40,444 nt of DNA from a virus (IMGVR_UViG_2579778961_000003); one strand, 5' to 3'. Positions 8,618 through 15,272 are shown, counted from the first letter of the stretch. The notes: a model not told the origin generated them from the sequence alone. A program made the numbers and translations.

Positions 8618-9498
8618 ACACTCCTCGTCAGTATTCTGGCGGCCATTGCACTTAATCCCGGAGACATGCGGTTGAATGCTGTGCCGACGGCGTTAAGCTG
8701 CCCGGAAACGGTATCCAGAGCACCTGCAATATTTCTTTTGTCCACACCACTCAGCGCAGACTGTGCCTGCTGTACATACGTGGCTGCTTCGCTGGCTGTT
8801 CTGGCCAGACTGATGGCATCGGGCATGGATTCAGAGAGTGCGTTAAACGCCGGAACACTTTTCCCCAGAGCCCCGGAGATATTACCCAGTCCGCTCATCA
8901 GCCCCGGCACACGGGTCAGTGCGACAACGGGGTTATCCTTCATTTTCTGTGTCACCCGAACGGCGCTGATAGTGGTCTGGAGTACAGACTGCGCCTGTTT
9001 CGCATAGTTGACGCCGTTGCGGATGAACTGCGCCACCCCTGAAGGTGAAGGTATGGCACCGGAGACCGCCCCGACACCCGGGAGCTTCGTGCGTATTGCC
9101 GGTGGTTGCAGAGGATTTTTCGGGTCACCGGTGTATTCCCGGAGAGACACGGTGGCACTGACAGCCAGCACGTTGCCGGTACTGTCAGTCTGCTCGCTGG
9201 TTGCAGTCACATCGGTGATCACGAACCAGCCGCGATAGTCACCGTTGCCGAAGACCAGCGCCAGTGCCTGATGGGCTTTCATGGCTGTTCGCAGTCTCGC
9301 CAGCTCCACATCGGGTACACAATAATGCTGATGGAAAACCAGAGTTATCTGGATTTCGTCCAGCCTGTCGCCGACGAACTGCAGACCAGGCTTACCCCCG
9401 ATGCGGGCATGCTCCGCATAATCGACGCCGAACGTGGCCTCGAAGCCGTCCCAGTAGGTAATCAGCTCAAACTCAATATCACCCAGTACGGCAAACAT
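8614..9498 (-). CDS. Tail protein U-like with C-terminal extension
   Basis: N-terminus MFAVLGDIEFEL...GGKPGLQFVGDRLDEIQITL follows the P2 gpU pattern as recalled; immediately downstream of the tape measure gene. Confidence 0.6.
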   Translation of the reverse strand: MFAVLGDIEFELITYWDGFEATFGVDYAEHARIGGKPGLQFVGDRLDEIQITLVFHQHYCVPDVELARLRTAMKAHQALALVFGNGDYRGWFVITDVTATSEQTDSTGNVLAVSATVSLREYTGDPKNPLQPPAIRTKLPGVGAVSGAIPSPSGVAQFIRNGVNYAKQAQSVLQTTISAVRVTQKMKDNPVVALTRVPGLMSGLGNISGALGKSVPAFNALSESMPDAISLARTASEAATYVQQAQSALSGVDKRNIAGALDTVSGQLNAVGTAFNRMSPGLSAMAARILTRSV

Positions 9499-12449
9499 CA
9501 GCGGTACTCCTTACGTTGTTTCTGAGCCAGCAGACGCTCCAGCATTTTTTCCAGCTCATGCAGACTCATATTCAGGGCACCAGTCAGTCCTGCAGGCGCT
9601 GTGGTTTCCCTGCCATTGAGGAAAAACTGAGGATTAAAGCTGACCTGGATACCACCAGACGTTCCACCGCCGGTTGCAGCTGCACCACGGCCTGAATATC
9701 CGGCAGCCAGGATTTCAGGCGAGGGGATACGGGGAACATCCGGTGTCATCTCATTTGCCAGACGTTGCCCTGGTAAAATCGATGCCCGGGTGGAGAGCGG
9801 AATAGCGGGCATGGAAGACAAACTATTGATTACGGCTCCGATCGCATTTTTAGCAGACGACATAAACCCATTGATATCGGGCAACGGCATACTGAAGCGA
9901 ACACCTGAAGTGTTATCCCGTATTTCTGGCCCCTGAATGCTCACGGGCATTCTGGGGAGCAGTTCACTGGCCATTCGCTGCCCGGCCAGAGCTGCAAGCG
10001 GAGTGGTCCGCTGCAGGCCAATGGCGGCCCCCTGCGCGATATTGTCACCAAAGCCCATAAACACGCGGCTCGGCGAATGAATGCCCAGCTTTTCGCTGAA
10101 CCAGCCACTGATGCTGTCGCCCATTCCGGTTACACTGGATTTGAGCGACTCCCATTTGTTTTTGATACCGTTAATCAGACCATCGACAAGATGGCCACCG
10201 AAGTCGGTAAACTTTGCCGGCAGATCAACACCAAGATATTTCAGCGCAGCTGCAAAGGCTTTATAGAGCAGACCTGCCGGCGACCAGTTAATCAGCAGCT
10301 TACCAGTTCCCGCGATACCGCCGTTAAAGGCTTCCTGAATGTCAGCCCAGCATTGTTTAAACCAGCTACTGATGCTGTCACCCATTCCGGTTACACTGGA
10401 TTTGAGCGACCCCCATTTGTTTTTGATACCGTTAATCAAACCGTCGATAAGATGGCCACCGAAGTCGGTGAACTTTGCCGGCAGAGTAACGCCGAAATAT
10501 TTCAGCGCAGCCGCAAAGGCTTTATAGAGCAGGCCTGCCGGCGACCAGTTAATCAGCAGCTTACCAGTTCCCGCGATACCGCCGTTAAAGGCTTCCTGAA
10601 TGTCAGCCCAGCGCTGTTTAAACCAGCCACTGACTGCCCCCCAGTTGCGGTAGATAAGGTAAGCTGCTGCCGCGACAGCGGTGATAACGAGACCGATGGG
10701 ATTCATCATCAGCGCTCGCCCAATCCAGAGAACGGCACGTGCAGCGCTCATAAAACCGCGAACGAGGCTGCCCGCCAGAACTTTGCTGAGTTTCAGTCCT
10801 CCGCTGGTCAGTCGGCTGAATCCAGTGACAAGCCAGCGTAATTTGCCACCTTCTCCGAGTGCGGTAGTCAGTCGATGCCAGTTGGTCCGGAGTAAAACAG
10901 CAGTTTTCCAGACGTTCACAAAGGGGGAAATAAGGAGATTCAGCCCCAGTTTGAGACCAACAGTCGCTATCTTAATCGCAAGGAGCGCACTGATGAGCTT
11001 AAAAGCCCCACTGACAAATTGCGGGTGAGTCGCCACCCAGTGTTTTGTCCCCTGAATGAGTGGGAGCAAGTCCTGAGTCAGAGAAATAAAAGATGGAGCT
11101 AATTGATCGCCCAGCGTAATTGCCAGATCGCGACTGCTGACCATAAGTGTTTTAGTGGCTTCAAGGGGAGATTTCAGCCGCTGATCATAAGCACTGGCAA
11201 GCAAATCGTTATCCGCAGCCCTGAGAGCACCGGCACGGATCTCTCGATATCTGTCCATGTTGGCCAGCATCGGGCGGATAAATGCCATGACCTGCATATC
11301 CGCGAACATATCGCCCAGACCAAAGTTTTTCGCCAGAGCCTGAAGTGCCTCATCTCTTGCCGTATCATTCTTTATTTTCATGGCTGATTTGAAGCCGGCC
11401 AGCGCTTCGGGGCTTTTGGCATTGAGGTAACGTTCTATAACACTCAACATCCCTTCAATCGGAGAGATCCCCGCAGCTTTATAACTCGCAATAGATCCCT
11501 GCAAATCAATACCCAGATCAGCAAACTGTTTCTGAGTATCGCGGGCAAAAATTTTGGTAAGAAAGTTTTTAAAATTATTGGCTGCTTCGTCGGTGGAACC
11601 TGCACCGATTTTTGCTATCTGGAGACTGGCCCCGATTTCAGCAACAGCCTCTTTTCCACTGGCAATACCCGCCATCATTGGGGCCAGGGACTGCATCCAC
11701 TTGACCTGATCCGGGATTTCAAATGACCCCTGGTCACCGGCATAAGCCATAATATTCTGAACGGCACCAAAATCTCTGGCCGCGCCTTTCAGGGAGTTTT
11801 GCCAGACTGCGGCCACTTTTGCCCAGTCCTGAGCAGACGTGCGTGTTGCCGTTGCCGCGCGGGCAATATCCGGCATCAGAAAACCGATATCTGACACATT
11901 ATCAATATTGTCGCTGATGAGTGAACCCATCGCCTCCTGCAGCTCATCCTGATACTGATTGTATTTAAGCGCCCAGCCTTTTATCTGTCCGGCAAGTGCA
12001 TCCCGCGTTTTATTGTCATATTTTGCGGTGATCGACATATCAATCATTTTGTCCTGAAAAGACATGGACTGCTGAACGGCAGGGGAAACCGTATGATAAA
12101 CAGTCTGTGCCATGCCATACGCTTCAATCCCCTGACCATACAGCGCCATGCGGTTAGCTTTCAGCGCATCACTGGTAGCGGATGCCGCTGACAGACGGCG
12201 CTGCTGGCGCTCAATTTGCTCCATGGTGCGGCTTACCCGCAGCAGCTCGCTGTTGAGATGCTGCATCCGGGAAGAACCCAGTTGACCATAACGTTCTGTT
12301 GCACGGGTTAAAGCGTTCTGACGTTCCTGCAGGCGGCGTGAGGTATCGCTCAGGGAATCAAGCGCACGGCGGGTACCGCTCATTGCAGAACGGAATGTGC
12401 TGCCAATCATCCCGCCGATAACAACGCCGACTGAAAACTGTCCCGACAT
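9498..12449 (-). CDS. Tail tape measure protein
   Basis: 983 aa, coiled-coil N-terminal region, hydrophobic central region, located after the frameshifted tail chaperone. Confidence 0.9.
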   Translation of the reverse strand: MSGQFSVGVVIGGMIGSTFRSAMSGTRRALDSLSDTSRRLQERQNALTRATERYGQLGSSRMQHLNSELLRVSRTMEQIERQQRRLSAASATSDALKANRMALYGQGIEAYGMAQTVYHTVSPAVQQSMSFQDKMIDMSITAKYDNKTRDALAGQIKGWALKYNQYQDELQEAMGSLISDNIDNVSDIGFLMPDIARAATATRTSAQDWAKVAAVWQNSLKGAARDFGAVQNIMAYAGDQGSFEIPDQVKWMQSLAPMMAGIASGKEAVAEIGASLQIAKIGAGSTDEAANNFKNFLTKIFARDTQKQFADLGIDLQGSIASYKAAGISPIEGMLSVIERYLNAKSPEALAGFKSAMKIKNDTARDEALQALAKNFGLGDMFADMQVMAFIRPMLANMDRYREIRAGALRAADNDLLASAYDQRLKSPLEATKTLMVSSRDLAITLGDQLAPSFISLTQDLLPLIQGTKHWVATHPQFVSGAFKLISALLAIKIATVGLKLGLNLLISPFVNVWKTAVLLRTNWHRLTTALGEGGKLRWLVTGFSRLTSGGLKLSKVLAGSLVRGFMSAARAVLWIGRALMMNPIGLVITAVAAAAYLIYRNWGAVSGWFKQRWADIQEAFNGGIAGTGKLLINWSPAGLLYKAFAAALKYFGVTLPAKFTDFGGHLIDGLINGIKNKWGSLKSSVTGMGDSISSWFKQCWADIQEAFNGGIAGTGKLLINWSPAGLLYKAFAAALKYLGVDLPAKFTDFGGHLVDGLINGIKNKWESLKSSVTGMGDSISGWFSEKLGIHSPSRVFMGFGDNIAQGAAIGLQRTTPLAALAGQRMASELLPRMPVSIQGPEIRDNTSGVRFSMPLPDINGFMSSAKNAIGAVINSLSSMPAIPLSTRASILPGQRLANEMTPDVPRIPSPEILAAGYSGRGAAATGGGTSGGIQVSFNPQFFLNGRETTAPAGLTGALNMSLHELEKMLERLLAQKQRKEYR
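10075..10640 (-). repeat. 261-bp in-frame tandem duplication (2 copies plus the start of a third) inside the tape measure gene
   Basis: ccagc(c/t)actgatgctgtc recurs at 10101, 10362 and 10623 (period 261 bp); the protein shows two 87-aa units WFKQ(R/C)WADIQEAFNGGIAGTGKLLINWSPAGLLYKAF... Confidence 0.9.
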
Positions 12450-12524
12450 AGTGGTTAACCTCCGGGGAAGGTGAAAAGACGTGAGGGGATAACGCAGAAC
12501 AGCCGCTACTGGCGGCTGTCTGTA

Positions 12525-12942
12525 CTATGATTTGTCGCCGTACTCGCTTTTGATTTGCTCTTCAGCCTGCTCCAGCCACATCTCCAGATCGTCAGTATCG
12601 AGGGCATCAATCTCCCCCGGCTGAAACCGGAACCATCTCGCCAGCAGCCCCTGCGCCTGCGTCAGCGCCCTGGTTGCTCTCACCCATCCCCGTGATGAGC
12701 TGAAATCGTTTCTGTAACTGCAGGTAATCAGCCAGATCCATATTGTCGAGATCCTCCGGGAGAAGACCAGTACTGCGGGCAATCAGCGGTTCGTCCCAGT
12801 CTGCCGGGTTTTTGCTGATTTTGCGCACCTGCTTCAGGTCTTTTACCGTCAGGCGTTTCAGTTCAACCAGCTCAATTCTGGTGCCTGCAGCAGTGGTGAA
12901 GGGATAAGACAATTTAAAAGTATCGGATGGGGTCTGTGACAT
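12525..12942 (-). CDS. Tail assembly chaperone, predicted frameshift-extended product (E+E'-like)
   Basis: Overlapping ORF 12525..12782 in the +1 frame fills the otherwise 157-nt gap before the tape measure gene; a G5 run (plus-strand C5 at 12614-12618) lies just before the zero-frame stop. Confidence 0.5.
12607..12942 (-). CDS. Tail assembly chaperone (P2 gpE-like), zero-frame product
   Basis: 111 aa ORF with AGGAG RBS between tail tube and tape measure genes. Confidence 0.7.
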   Translation of the reverse strand: MSQTPSDTFKLSYPFTTAAGTRIELVELKRLTVKDLKQVRKISKNPADWDEPLIARSTGLLPEDLDNMDLADYLQLQKRFQLITGMGESNQGADAGAGAAGEMVPVSAGGD

Positions 12943-13018
12943 GATTGTGCTCCTGTGTAAGTTCAGGGCAGTATGTCGGGAGAAGCGCGTGACGGATATT
13001 AAAGGAGATTAAGAAGAA

Positions 13019-13032
13019 GGGGCCGGAGCCCC
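13019..13032 (-). terminator. Hairpin with T-rich tail downstream of ORF 13040..13321
   Basis: Minus strand GGGGC-TCCG-GCCCC followed by TTCTTCTTAATCTCCTTT, 8 nt after the ORF stop. Confidence 0.4.
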
Positions 13033-13039
13033 TGTGATG

Positions 13040-13321
13040 TCAGCAAGTGCGAAACCCCTTGCAGTTACGCAGGAAAGCGATGAGAAGCGTCTTTCCCTCA
13101 GATTTGCCGATGCCGGAGAACCAGTGGTCGGGAGGCTCCCATGCTTCAATCAAATCCGCCAGTTTGCGGGCCTTTGAACGTGTGCAGTCAATCGGGTCAT
13201 TGGTTTTACGGGTATTAAAAAGGGTTTCCACCCCCGGAATATCAAGGAGGGTAAACCACGTACCATTTGACATGCCCAGTGCCGCACATCGTCCTCCTTT
13301 ATCCGTCAGTTCAACACTCAC
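13040..13321 (-). CDS. Hypothetical protein inserted between tail tube and tail chaperone genes (possible moron)
   Basis: 93 aa ORF starting at GTG 2 nt after the tube stop; not part of canonical P2 or Mu tail gene order; followed by its own hairpin. Confidence 0.4.
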   Translation of the reverse strand: MSVELTDKGGRCAALGMSNGTWFTLLDIPGVETLFNTRKTNDPIDCTRSKARKLADLIEAWEPPDHWFSGIGKSEGKTLLIAFLRNCKGFRTC

Positions 13322-13323
13322 CG

Positions 13324-13845
13324 TCAGCCCCCGATATTGATACGGTAGTCAGTCAGTTGATCAACACCGCCGACCCGGAAGATGTTGGCCAGATAGTCCA
13401 GTTGCAGCAGCTCTTCACCATCCAGTACCTGTCTGATATACGTGCAGGTGAAGCTACTGGAGAACTCGGCGTTCTCGTGCTGTTTGAACGTCCCCAGCGG
13501 GTTCTTCTTGAACATAATCGTCAGGAAGGTGACCAGCGGGATTTCGTCAATCAGCCCCTGCGAGCTGTAGCGCTGGACGCTGGAACGACACTGCAGTGCC
13601 AGCGACCTGTACGGGTTCGCGGCAGACAGCATCGCATCGCGGTAAAAGCTGTTCCATTTGATTTCGCCTTCCAGTTTGTCAAAACCAGCCGGGAGTTCCA
13701 CCTTACCCACCATCCCCAGCGCCTTGTGTTCCTGCATAATCATGGAGACATCGGGGAGTTTAACTTCCTCAGCCCGTCCCAGCAGGTTAGTACCATCCAG
13801 ATAGATGTTGGCATTCGTGATGCGGTTTATCTCAATCTTTGACAT
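13324..13845 (-). CDS. Tail tube protein (P2 FII-like)
   Basis: 173 aa ORF directly after the sheath gene. Confidence 0.8.
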   Translation of the reverse strand: MSKIEINRITNANIYLDGTNLLGRAEEVKLPDVSMIMQEHKALGMVGKVELPAGFDKLEGEIKWNSFYRDAMLSAANPYRSLALQCRSSVQRYSSQGLIDEIPLVTFLTIMFKKNPLGTFKQHENAEFSSSFTCTYIRQVLDGEELLQLDYLANIFRVGGVDQLTDYRINIGG

Positions 13846-15272
13846 CAGTTGCCCCCTTTCAGGGTTAACAGGTATTCCGAGGTGATCTCAGTCTCAAACG
13901 TCAGTCGCTCCAGCGGCGGTGGTGGCGTATATTTGTAGCTCAGCAACAGGTGCCCGGCGGCCAGCTCCGTCTCCGGATTGCGGGCCGGATCAAACCAGCA
14001 ACGGAAGCCCAGTACCGCACCATCACCAGTCATTTTGCGACCGTAGGCGTTGACCGACTCCGTCAGTGCATCAATCAGCGCCTGAGTAATCGGCATGTCG
14101 ATGTACTGCTGGCTGAAATAACGAATGGACTCGTTGATCACATCACCGGTGCGGCGAACGTTCTCAAAGTTACGCATATGGGTGACCGTTGGCCATGCTG
14201 CCGTCCGGTTACCCCACAGACGAAGGCCGCTGCCGTAACTGCTGAATACCGTGGTGATCCCCTGTTCGTTAAGCAGGTTCACCTCACTCTGCGGGTCATC
14301 AATCATCGCGGACAGCTGGCGCTCCACGCCGGTGATCCCCAGAATCTCCTGATTGGAGGATGACCACCAGTAGCCCTTGTCCAGATCGACTCTGGCACGC
14401 AGACCTGCTGCACGCTGGCTGAGCGGCTCCAGACGCTCTGTGTTTGTCACCGGGTCATATACCTTCACATGCGGATAGCACAGACGGACGCGGTCGGAGC
14501 TGGTATTGAAGTTGATGGTGCCTTCCGGGCCACGACCTGCCAGAGCCTGTGCAAAGGTGGTACCGACAGGCGCATCAATGTAGGTTACCGCGCCCAGCTT
14601 CTCTGCCATGGCGATAAGCTCAACTGCGACACTCTTCTGGGTGCAGAACACCGGCGCAATCAGAATTTTGGCGAAATAGCCGTACAGGTTGAAGCTGTCG
14701 TTAAGCAGCTTCATGCCGGTTCGGTTTCCGGCGCTGTTCACCCCGCCGATGATGTCCGCCGCAGTCACCTTCGACGGGTCCGCGTACTCATAGCTCACCT
14801 TCACGCTGCCACCGGCCTCAATAGCCTTGCCCAGGTTCGTGAGCACACCCGCCTGCGCATCAACACGGTAGTCCGTGTTCGCCGTGTGGGTGGTGCTGCC
14901 TTCACTGTTTTTCACCACCACATTAGCGACAACCGGATGCGCCAGTCTGGCCTGCCCTGTCGATTTGTCAAAGGTAACCACCTCATCCTCGATCGCCGTT
15001 TTATGTTTCGCCGGGTCGAGGACGTTAATGACCAGAACGGTGCCTGCACCATGGTCATAAATCGCATCCAGCGCCTGCGGAATGGTAAAGCCGGTGAACT
15101 GGCTGCCAAATGCCGCTGCGTCTTTCTCAGACAGGCACTGTACCAGCGTATTGACATCCCCCATCGGGGCGGTACCAATCAGGCCAATAACGGCAGATTT
15201 CACCGTTTTAACCGGGCGGGCACCGTTTTCCACCTCAATGGTTTCGGGACCATGCAGATAGTTAGCTGCCAT
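13845..15272 (-). CDS. Tail sheath protein
   Basis: 475 aa; size and position typical of contractile tail sheath (Mu L / P2 FI family). Confidence 0.9.
   Translation of the reverse strand: MAANYLHGPETIEVENGARPVKTVKSAVIGLIGTAPMGDVNTLVQCLSEKDAAAFGSQFTGFTIPQALDAIYDHGAGTVLVINVLDPAKHKTAIEDEVVTFDKSTGQARLAHPVVANVVVKNSEGSTTHTANTDYRVDAQAGVLTNLGKAIEAGGSVKVSYEYADPSKVTAADIIGGVNSAGNRTGMKLLNDSFNLYGYFAKILIAPVFCTQKSVAVELIAMAEKLGAVTYIDAPVGTTFAQALAGRGPEGTINFNTSSDRVRLCYPHVKVYDPVTNTERLEPLSQRAAGLRARVDLDKGYWWSSSNQEILGITGVERQLSAMIDDPQSEVNLLNEQGITTVFSSYGSGLRLWGNRTAAWPTVTHMRNFENVRRTGDVINESIRYFSQQYIDMPITQALIDALTESVNAYGRKMTGDGAVLGFRCWFDPARNPETELAAGHLLLSYKYTPPPPLERLTFETEITSEYLLTLKGGN

Follow-up and report, generated by a model that had tools for sequence, protein, structure and literature searches.

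Frameshifts in tail assembly chaperone genes are textbook examples of programmed recoding, and almost all of the characterised ones are -1. Here we analyse the tail chaperone gene carried by a 40,444-nucleotide stretch of viral DNA (IMGVR_UViG_2579778961_000003; this whole stretch is called the window below), in which a second reading frame, encoding a C-terminal extension, overlaps the 3' end of the gene in the +1 frame. The window holds a P2-type tail module, with genes for sheath, tube, E, E' and tape measure, that belongs to a BcepMu-like transposable prophage of E. coli, and the locus belongs to the already known class of frameshifted tail chaperones. We find that the +1 relation is conserved and that the extension is under selection as a protein, and we propose that ribosomes would reach it by slipping one base forward at CGA_UUU_C. 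All features are on the minus strand, with positions counted from the first letter of the window.

Frameshifted tail chaperones are conserved in tailed phages, usually with a -1 shift, although -2 (Mu) and +1 shifts are also on record (PMC5009743, PMC3498833), and about 350 forward frameshifts have been annotated in actinobacteriophage chaperone genes (PMC10885494). The closest described systems are those of P2, where E and E+E' arise from a -1 frameshift at T_TTT_TTG (Christie et al., 2002, as cited in PMC3091744 and PMC3931495; annotation of NC_001895), and of Mu, where gp41 and gp41-42 arise from a -2 frameshift at about 2.2% (Xu, Hendrix and Duda, 2004, as cited in PMC5009743 and PMC3498833). 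Outside phages, the influenza A PA-X site UCC_UUU_CGU directs a +1 shift established by peptide sequencing, for which P-site slippage on UUU_C is the simplest explanation; the authors expected such sites, with a limited choice of flanking codons, to form a broader class (PMC3498833). In bacteria, UUU_Ynn is particularly liable to +1 shifts even without a stop codon, with Yersinia YopN-TyeA as a case (PMC5009743), and a cell-free survey placed UUU among the most shift-prone P-site codons (bioRxiv 10.1101/2025.10.02.679949). CGA is among the few codons able to replace GCG in the yeast Ty3 +1 site.

The extension lies in a conserved +1 frame

The chaperone gene begins with ATG at 12942 and ends with TGA at 12609-12607, and a second open reading frame (ORF) is open from 12782, directly after TGA at 12785-12783, to TAG at 12527-12525; the TTG at 12782 is only a mechanical ORF start. 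Codon first bases fall at 0 mod 3 in the zero frame and at 2 mod 3 in the extension frame; on the minus strand the latter lie one base downstream, which places the extension in the +1 (equivalently -2) frame. An initial annotation, made from the sequence alone, had given the same ORF coordinates and the same +1 relation, and the ORF listing, the translation and the coordinate arithmetic all agree with it. It had also called the arrangement unusual; the frame is indeed not -1, but the word overstates the case, as both -2 (Mu) and +1 shifts have been published.

The pair was correctly recognised there as a tail chaperone with its extension. The chaperone ORF matches Pfam PF10109, Phage_TAC_7 (residues 8-81, E 5.5e-21, 74.8 bits against a gathering threshold of 25), which Pfam describes as 'Phage tail assembly chaperone proteins, E, or 41 or 14', and it matches phrog_166 ('tail protein') at 2.8e-32. 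It is placed between a PF04985 tube gene and a PF10145 tape measure gene, as frameshifting tail chaperones require. NCBIfam gave no match to the chaperone or to the fusion protein, and the PDB held no sequence relative at E <= 1. Existing annotation names only a 'phage tail assembly protein' in RefSeq and a 'tail protein E' in Escherichia phage PhiKM (Bcepmuvirus), whose region is 100% identical to the window. The 551 bases from 12450 to 13000 occur at an identity of at least 99% in 576 of 5,426 complete E. coli genomes, in many of them at 100%.

For comparison we gathered 231 loci in all, mostly chaperone relatives with a few reference records (phages Mu and P2), from annotated phage and E. 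coli records, from one genome per species and from IMG/VR contigs. Codon and stop counts are based on 78 distinct enterobacterial junctions, and counts over all loci on 117 distinct junctions, in 93 of which the extension is in the +1 frame and in 24 in the -1 frame. A profile of the E' domain made from +1 peptides, applied to the first 149 related loci, assigned the domain to the +1 frame in 132 loci, to the -1 frame in 15 and to the frame of the chaperone itself in two.

The +1 ORF overlaps the 3' end of the chaperone gene, has no conserved start and is conserved as a protein. Past the zero-frame stop, its variation falls mainly at its own third codon positions, as expected if it is translated, and its C-terminal 40 residues match phrog_8286 at 4.8e-27. 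The ORF contains no ATG in the window, where ACG stands in the place of an ATG found in some relatives, and no start codon is conserved among the relatives. The +1 peptide matches PF06528 (Phage_P2_GpE) weakly, at 15.8-18.4 bits (E 0.01-0.0015) against a gathering threshold of 23, covering positions 4-36 of the 37 in the profile; of 18 aligned relatives, 13 match the same family at E <= 0.01. In a BLASTP comparison with P2 E+E', LARWFRFQPGEID... aligned with VAVIFHWPPSELY..., with E 0.03 for P2 E'. Taken together, there is in our view little doubt that the long product is reached via a conserved shift into the +1 frame.

Conservation points to a shift upstream of the G5 run

The initial annotation had placed the slip in a run of five G directly before the zero-frame stop. 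The run is where it was said to be, the coding strand reading GCC GGG GGA GAT TGA with a single codon (GAT) in between, but conservation, stop positions and frame-specific substitutions all speak against it as the slip site. Comparison with homologous junctions thus retained the +1 arrangement and not the G5 site, and the transcriptional slippage suggested as a variant found no support in conservation either.

The E' (P2 GpE-like) core, LLARWFRFQPGE..., begins upstream of G5: the PF06528 match starts at LARWF, nine residues before the G5-encoded glycine, and in the alignment with P2 E' and the -1-frame relatives the conserved core starts at least 15 residues before it. The +1 peptide LLARWFRFQP(G/S)EI, which also starts upstream of the run, stays conserved, and codon changes in it, such as TTT/TTC and AGA/CGG, are silent only in the +1 frame. 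Moreover, the zero frame reaches the position of the G run in only 20 of the 78 enterobacterial junctions and has already stopped in the other 58: the stop falls at residue 105 in 36 of these (GTT TAG ATT), at residue 110 in 21 and in the remaining one at residue 91. Slipping at G5 would therefore yield a truncated E' and would be impossible in most relatives. The run itself is present in 50/78 and absent in 28/78, and it is also absent in other +1 clades; sequences such as GCC GAG TGA, GCC CAG TGA, GCC TGG GGA and GCC AGG GGA replace it, because the +1 frame merely encodes Pro-(Gly/Ser/...)-Glu there.

Allele counts across the seven codons 5' of G5 gave synonymous/non-synonymous ratios of 1/9 in the zero frame and 8/2 in the +1 frame, and of 1/7 and 7/1, respectively, within the window's own clade. 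The locus thus departs from the Mu-type pattern on both counts: the G run is not one that lies inside the overlap and is conserved among same-frame relatives, and evolution 5' of the run does not follow the zero frame before turning to the extension frame 3' of it. Two identical loci from IMG/VR (L087 and one other), 98% identical to the window, carry TAG in place of the zero-frame Q91 codon (CAG; window 12670-12672), which leaves a chaperone of 90 residues and an intact +1 frame; this stop fits either a slip site 5' of residue 91 or a defective copy.

An entropy profile over the 78 sequences delimits the site further. Variation sits at zero-frame third positions up to residue 78, and from residues 85/86 onward it moves to zero-frame first positions, which are the third positions of the +1 frame. 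At residues 85/86 the base after GG takes all four values (entropy 1.77) and TGG is invariant. Over residues 93-110 the synonymous/non-synonymous counts are 9/40 when read in the zero frame and 28/21 when read in the +1 frame. From residue 85/86 onward, purifying selection thus acts on the +1 frame. A +1-frame stop lies six codons 5' of the TTT codon for F80 in one relative (L015), and this stop together with the switch in signature confines a conserved site to the stretch from about residue 75 to residue 85. The interval in which a shift is permitted narrows, in Neisseria and Kingella, to 15 codons (15-17 in some loci), and +1-frame synonymous variation (GCT/GCG/GCA) begins directly after TTC. 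On these grounds we consider it very likely that the shift occurs 5' of residue 86 and not at G5. The case also illustrates that the homopolymer nearest to a stop codon need not be the slip site.

CGA_UUU_C is the favoured slip site

About 90 bases upstream of the G5 run, the gene reads CGA_TTT_C, which is the only slippery motif common to all relatives. TTT is found in 78/78 and CGA in 77/78 of the enterobacterial sequences, followed by CA(G/A/T); these are the two lowest codon entropies among 21 conserved degenerate codons, and CGA accounts for only 10 of the 122 Arg codons in this phage's tail genes. Across all loci, an in-phase TTT_C occurs within the permitted interval in 93/93 distinct +1 junctions, compared with 1/24 of the -1 junctions, which instead carry G_GGA_AAG in 23 cases and a T7 run in one. 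Outside the enterobacterial context CGA_TTT_CAR, the flanks vary: TCC TTT CGC in BcepMu and GCC TTT CGC in other Burkholderia loci; GTG or GTA, TTT, then CGG or CGC in Pseudomonas; and, in Neisseria and Kingella, TGG, ACC, ACT or ACA, then TTT, then CGC or CGT. TTT_C is thus a slippery sequence within the overlap that relatives conserve. As in the UUU_C class, UUU is followed in phase by C and UUC is read in the +1 frame, and the conservation goes beyond what the protein needs. It is not a canonical X_XXY_YYZ heptamer, and such a heptamer would not reach the +1 frame. Slippage on CGA_UUU_C is plausible given the precedents of UUU_Ynn, PA-X and the cell-free survey, and we moderately favour +1 slippage there as the shift that gives access to E'.

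Several points weigh against this assignment, for which conservation is the evidence. The four +1 codons between TTC and Gly-Trp (SSSR in the window) are not conserved, so the signature places the shift at residues ~75-85 and not at F80 itself, and the stretch from F80 to G85 looks slightly better conserved in the zero frame than in the +1 frame, which also favours a later shift at GGG_A. The 93 +1 junctions share phylogeny and may amount to some 5-8 independent clades. The enterobacterial protein sequence Phe-Gln already requires a C after TTT, which leaves the choice of TTT over TTC and of CGA as the nucleotide-level evidence; CGA TTT may also be fixed for a different reason at the nucleotide level. 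An in-phase TTT_C occurs five times elsewhere in the ~2,290 codons of the tail genes, so the motif by itself does not make a programmed site. Known stimulators are also missing from their usual places: the A-site CAG is the common Gln codon in the tail genes (86, against 12 CAA) and would not provide a slow A site, no Shine-Dalgarno-like element was seen by eye 5' of TTT in CTG CAG TTA CAG AAA CGA, the RNA fold of 12600-12712 is no better than that of shuffled sequences (z = -1.0), and an Rfam scan of 12400-13000 gave nothing at E <= 1.

The T-run contexts of two relatives are of interest here. The locus of Neisseria montereyensis (L053) reads GAC TTT TTT TCA with E' in the P2-like -1 frame, and an IMG/VR locus (L164) reads GAA TTT TTT CGT with E' in the +1 frame; the two are a possible snapshot of how frameshift direction switches.

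Alternative sites and origins of the extension

The nearest competitor places the shift directly 5' of the conserved +1 Trp, at GGG_A (12690-12687), where tRNA-Gly would move from GGG to GGA and give ...FQLITG-WVRAT..., or where, in a variant, the ribosome would slip backward on the short G run as in Mu, with ...TGGWVR as the result. The +1 coding signature starts exactly at this codon, GGG is a slippery P-site codon in the cell-free survey (bioRxiv 10.1101/2025.10.02.679949), and Mu, also of PF10109 and reported in PMC5009743 and PMC3498833 to shift -2, has CGG GGG CGA GTG GCT, where the +1 frame encodes Glu-Trp-Leu directly behind the G run. Five relatives (L011, L028, L040, L041 and L025) nevertheless keep the +1 arrangement with ACC, AGC or GGC instead of GGG, and the +1 relatives from Burkholderia, Pseudomonas and Neisseria have no GGG at the matching place; where GGG is present, the base after it takes all four values, so that re-pairing would often be poor. 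A shift at GGG_A would also leave the fixed CGA TTT unexplained, and we regard it as unlikely. A -2 shift was rejected at the TTT as well as the GGG site, as re-pairing would be mismatched (on GAU and on CGG or CUG, respectively); the direction is inferred to be +1 rather than -2. The G5 run (12618-12614) is a much poorer candidate. It would give ...SAG-EIDALD... (EMVPVSAGEIDALDTDDLEMWLEQAEEQIK) by a +1 shift or ...SAGG-EIDALD... by a Mu-like -2 shift, or else act through RNA polymerase slippage; five G is short for transcriptional slippage. In its favour, the run is inside the overlap in the window and its clade (the 20 junctions above), tRNA-Gly re-pairing would be perfect for both +1 and -2, G-run precedent exists in the -2 shift of Mu as described in PMC3498833, and sites near the zero-frame stop are typical, with a mean distance of 26 nt in the SEA-PHAGES data (PMC10885494). 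E' is conserved in the +1 frame all the same where the zero frame stops earlier and where the run is absent, the seven codons 5' of the run are under +1 and not zero-frame selection even in the window's clade, and the product would miss the conserved LLARWFRF part of the GpE core, which makes a shift on G5 very improbable.

That E' is produced without recoding, from an internal start in the +1 ORF, or that it is never made, seems to us a shade less probable still. Some relatives do have a +1-frame ATG (..TLMQAQ.., ..QAMALLARW..), RefSeq/PGAP predicts a stand-alone 'GpE family phage tail protein' coding sequence in one relative, strain A35, and PHROG families of short stand-alone E' ORFs exist. 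Besides the lack of a conserved start described above, +1 selection begins at Gly-Trp (residues 85/86), well upstream of the ATGs of these relatives, and the homologous E' of P2 is known to arise solely as the E+E' fusion (record annotation; PMC3091744); that E' is not made is excluded by the strong purifying selection on it. Finally, the two frames could be a homopolymer sequencing artefact hiding a single 138-residue ORF, a source of error that the initial annotation had raised. About ten single-ORF 'fusions' do exist in public assemblies, most with G5 read as G4 (...VPVSAGEIDALD...), which shows that the run is indel-prone, and two of our own loci, L143 and L036, are likewise in a single frame. 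These fusions join at several different homopolymers and come from few, mostly short, contigs, whereas the +1 offset recurs in 93 distinct junctions, including ones without a homopolymer at that place, and the 576 complete E. coli genomes share the sequence of the window; an error is therefore excluded for practical purposes. Among 5.8 billion proteins there was no curated frameshift fusion, the few single-ORF versions being scattered homopolymer indels. The single-frame arrangement results from a one-base deletion next to the G run in L143 (IMG/VR) and five codons 5' of TTT in L036 (Apirhabdus apintestini, CP138906). Sequencing error or a defective prophage is the probable explanation for both, as for the public fusions; real cases would make the long product only.

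A proposed mechanism

In the mechanism that we propose, most ribosomes would read the chaperone gene to its stop and make the 111-residue gpE-like protein, and what we infer to be a minority would move one base forward at CGA_UUU_C. Peptidyl-tRNA-Phe could re-pair from UUU to the overlapping UUC, or, with CGA in the P site, Phe-tRNA could bind UUC out of frame; both routes would lead to the same protein. Through its weak I:A wobble pair, the fixed 5' CGA may modify the shift from the E site or the P site, which is speculation on our part. Decoding would then resume at AGC (12701-12699) in the +1 frame and continue to TAG at 12527-12525. The predicted product, E+E', is a protein of 138 residues that would join chaperone residues 1-80 to a 58-residue tail (SSSRGWVRATRALTQAQGLLARWFRFQPGEIDALDTDDLEMWLEQAEEQIKSEYGDKS) carrying the conserved GpE-like domain; its tryptic peptides around the junction would be FSSSR and GWVR. 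If the system works like lambda G/GT and P2 E/E+E', the short and the long protein would be made in a fixed ratio and, as the tail is assembled, would coat the tape measure and bring in tube subunits.

Comparison with described systems

The locus resembles P2 in the position of its genes (FI, FII, E, E', T in P2) and in the pairing of a PF10109-type chaperone with an extension probably of the GpE/PF06528 type. P2 offers an independent reference point, as its -1 site is annotated and, according to the citing papers, experimentally established. The slip Phe, putative in the window, lies at the end of the chaperone domain in both, 32 residues before PPSE in P2 and, as F80, 30 residues before QPGE in the window, the products have 142 and (predicted) 138 residues, and there is no evident stimulatory RNA structure. 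P2, however, slips -1, by tandem slippage on a heptamer (GGT TTT TTG) close to the zero-frame stop, whereas the window has a +1-frame extension, a putative UUU_C tetranucleotide site and a zero frame that continues for 31 more codons. With Mu it shares PF10109 (named for E, 41 and 14), the +1/-2 extension frame, a transposable phage and a G run in the overlap. In contrast to the window, the short permitted interval of Mu has CGG_GGG_CGA and no TTT_C; the G5 of the window lacks conservation, its position is 3' of where the E' core starts, and the proposed +1 slip would give one residue fewer than a -2 shift.

Lambda G/GT (-1, G_GGA_AAG) is similar in its low fixed ratio of short to extended chaperone, a ratio that matters in lambda, and in the position of the gene between the major tail and tape measure genes. 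The lambda heptamer G_GGA_AAG is also used by the -1-frame members of the window's chaperone family in Pasteurellaceae and Moraxella. There is no sequence similarity to lambda G, and the direction and motif of the window differ. The PA-X site has the same tetranucleotide as the window, a proposed re-pairing of tRNA-Phe from UUU to the better-matched UUC and a low-level shift without RNA structure, and the non-enterobacterial relatives even carry NNN_UUU_CGN, as in the TCC TTT CGC of BcepMu. PA-X belongs to another biological system, however, and the window, known from its sequence, has as its 3' codon CAG, which is not rare, and as its conserved flank the 5' CGA.

BcepMu itself (NC_005882) has an orthologous tail module, with gp41 as the chaperone and gp42 as the +1-frame E' ORF. 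Its record (L005, 4199-4960) names gp42 a 'probable lambda G' and places the slippage between gp42 and gp43. The comparison of sequences suggests, contrary to the record, that the frameshift pair is gp41 and gp42, with TCC TTT CGC as a candidate site. In the related phiE255 (L006), a membrane protein is annotated on the minus strand over the gp43 region.

We give roughly even chances to a broader proposition, that one branch of the E/gp41/gp14 chaperones uses a single conserved +1 signal, NNN_UUU_CGN or CGA_UUU_CAR, in BcepMu-like and related prophages of Enterobacterales, Burkholderia, Pseudomonas and Neisseriaceae, with the core tetranucleotide of PA-X at a position comparable to that of P2 T_TTT_TTG, and with -1 shifts in sister lineages on G_GGA_AAG, at a place nearer to the E' domain. 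Recoding would then have changed direction repeatedly within one protein family with its two-product logic kept, and E+E' would be missing from current annotation in hundreds of E. coli genomes and in the BcepMu reference record. For a prophage as widespread as this one in the 5,426 complete E. coli genomes, the long chaperone product, reachable only via the +1 frame, is unannotated. The slip site and long product appear to be unrecorded for this lineage; a supplementary table may already list the group. A family rule, with TTT_C in +1 members and G_GGA_AAG or a T run in -1 members, could improve the automatic annotation of E+E'. The locus would add a natural bacterial or phage case to the UUU_C class of +1 sites, and would offer a system for asking how frameshift direction evolves.

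Neighbouring genes and sequence features

The genes and sequence elements of the tail module discussed here are collected in the table below.

Features of the tail module around the chaperone gene, in window coordinates
Feature	Position	Strand	Remarks
Sheath gene	13845-15272	minus	
Tail tube gene, FII type	13324-13845	minus	PF04985, E 2.9e-53
93-codon ORF, function unassigned	13040-13321	minus	phrog_1239 (E 4.7e-48); between tube and chaperone genes
Tail assembly chaperone ORF, gpE / Mu gp41 type	12607-12942	minus	zero frame, 111 aa + TGA
Candidate +1 slip site CGA_TTT_C	12708-12702	minus	R79 CGA 12708-12706, F80 TTT 12705-12703, Q81 first base C 12702
+1-frame part of the predicted E+E' product	12525-12701	minus	58 codons, SSSRGWVRATRALTQAQGLLARWFRFQPGEIDALDTDDLEMWLEQAEEQIKSEYGDKS, + TAG stop
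GGG ATG (G85 M86 in zero frame; GGA TGG = Gly-Trp in +1)	12685-12690	minus	start of +1 signature; alternative slip site GGG_A
Conserved E' (GpE-like) core LLARWFRFQPGEIDALDTDDLEMWLEQAEEQIK	12549-12647	minus	+1 frame; from alignment with relatives, P2 E' and -1-frame relatives
G5 run	12618-12614	minus	in the +1 frame, part of CCG GGG GAG = Pro-Gly-Glu of the E' core
Tape measure gene	9498-12449	minus	983-aa ORF, PF10145, E 1.3e-20

The 93-residue ORF between the tube and chaperone genes has a weak match to DUF7739, below the Pfam cut-off. It is kept in the enterobacterial relatives, and BcepMu and phiE255 have no copy at that place.

The tape measure gene contains a 261-bp tandem duplication at 10099-10633 (2.0 copies, 93% match), which repeats an 87-residue segment (...WFKQ.WADIQEAFNGGIAGTGKLLINWSPAGLLYKAFAAALKY...). 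Its product has 983 residues in the window, compared with about 821 (2466 nt) in the relatives KP12 and E. coli B7A, and a longer tail would be expected from the longer protein. In the PhiKM record, a sequencing gap falls at the site of the duplication.

Two GC-rich or terminator-like hairpins flank the chaperone region. The first, at 12499-12519 (ACAGCCGC-CAGTA-GCGGCTGT, then TCTGCGTT; GC-rich, about -18 kcal/mol), follows the E' stop (12525-12527) and precedes the tape measure start (12449). Close relatives keep a hairpin at this place with varying loops and, in some, a varied stem, e.g. GCAGCCGG-TAAC-GGCTGC TTTCTT, and distant relatives have none; its role may be that of a weak terminator or attenuator, or it may affect mRNA stability between the chaperone and tape measure genes. 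The second, terminator-like, at 13018-13033 (AGGGGCTCCGGCCCCT plus TCTTCTTAAT), separates the 93-codon ORF from the chaperone start (12942), and so falls within what should be a single late tail operon.

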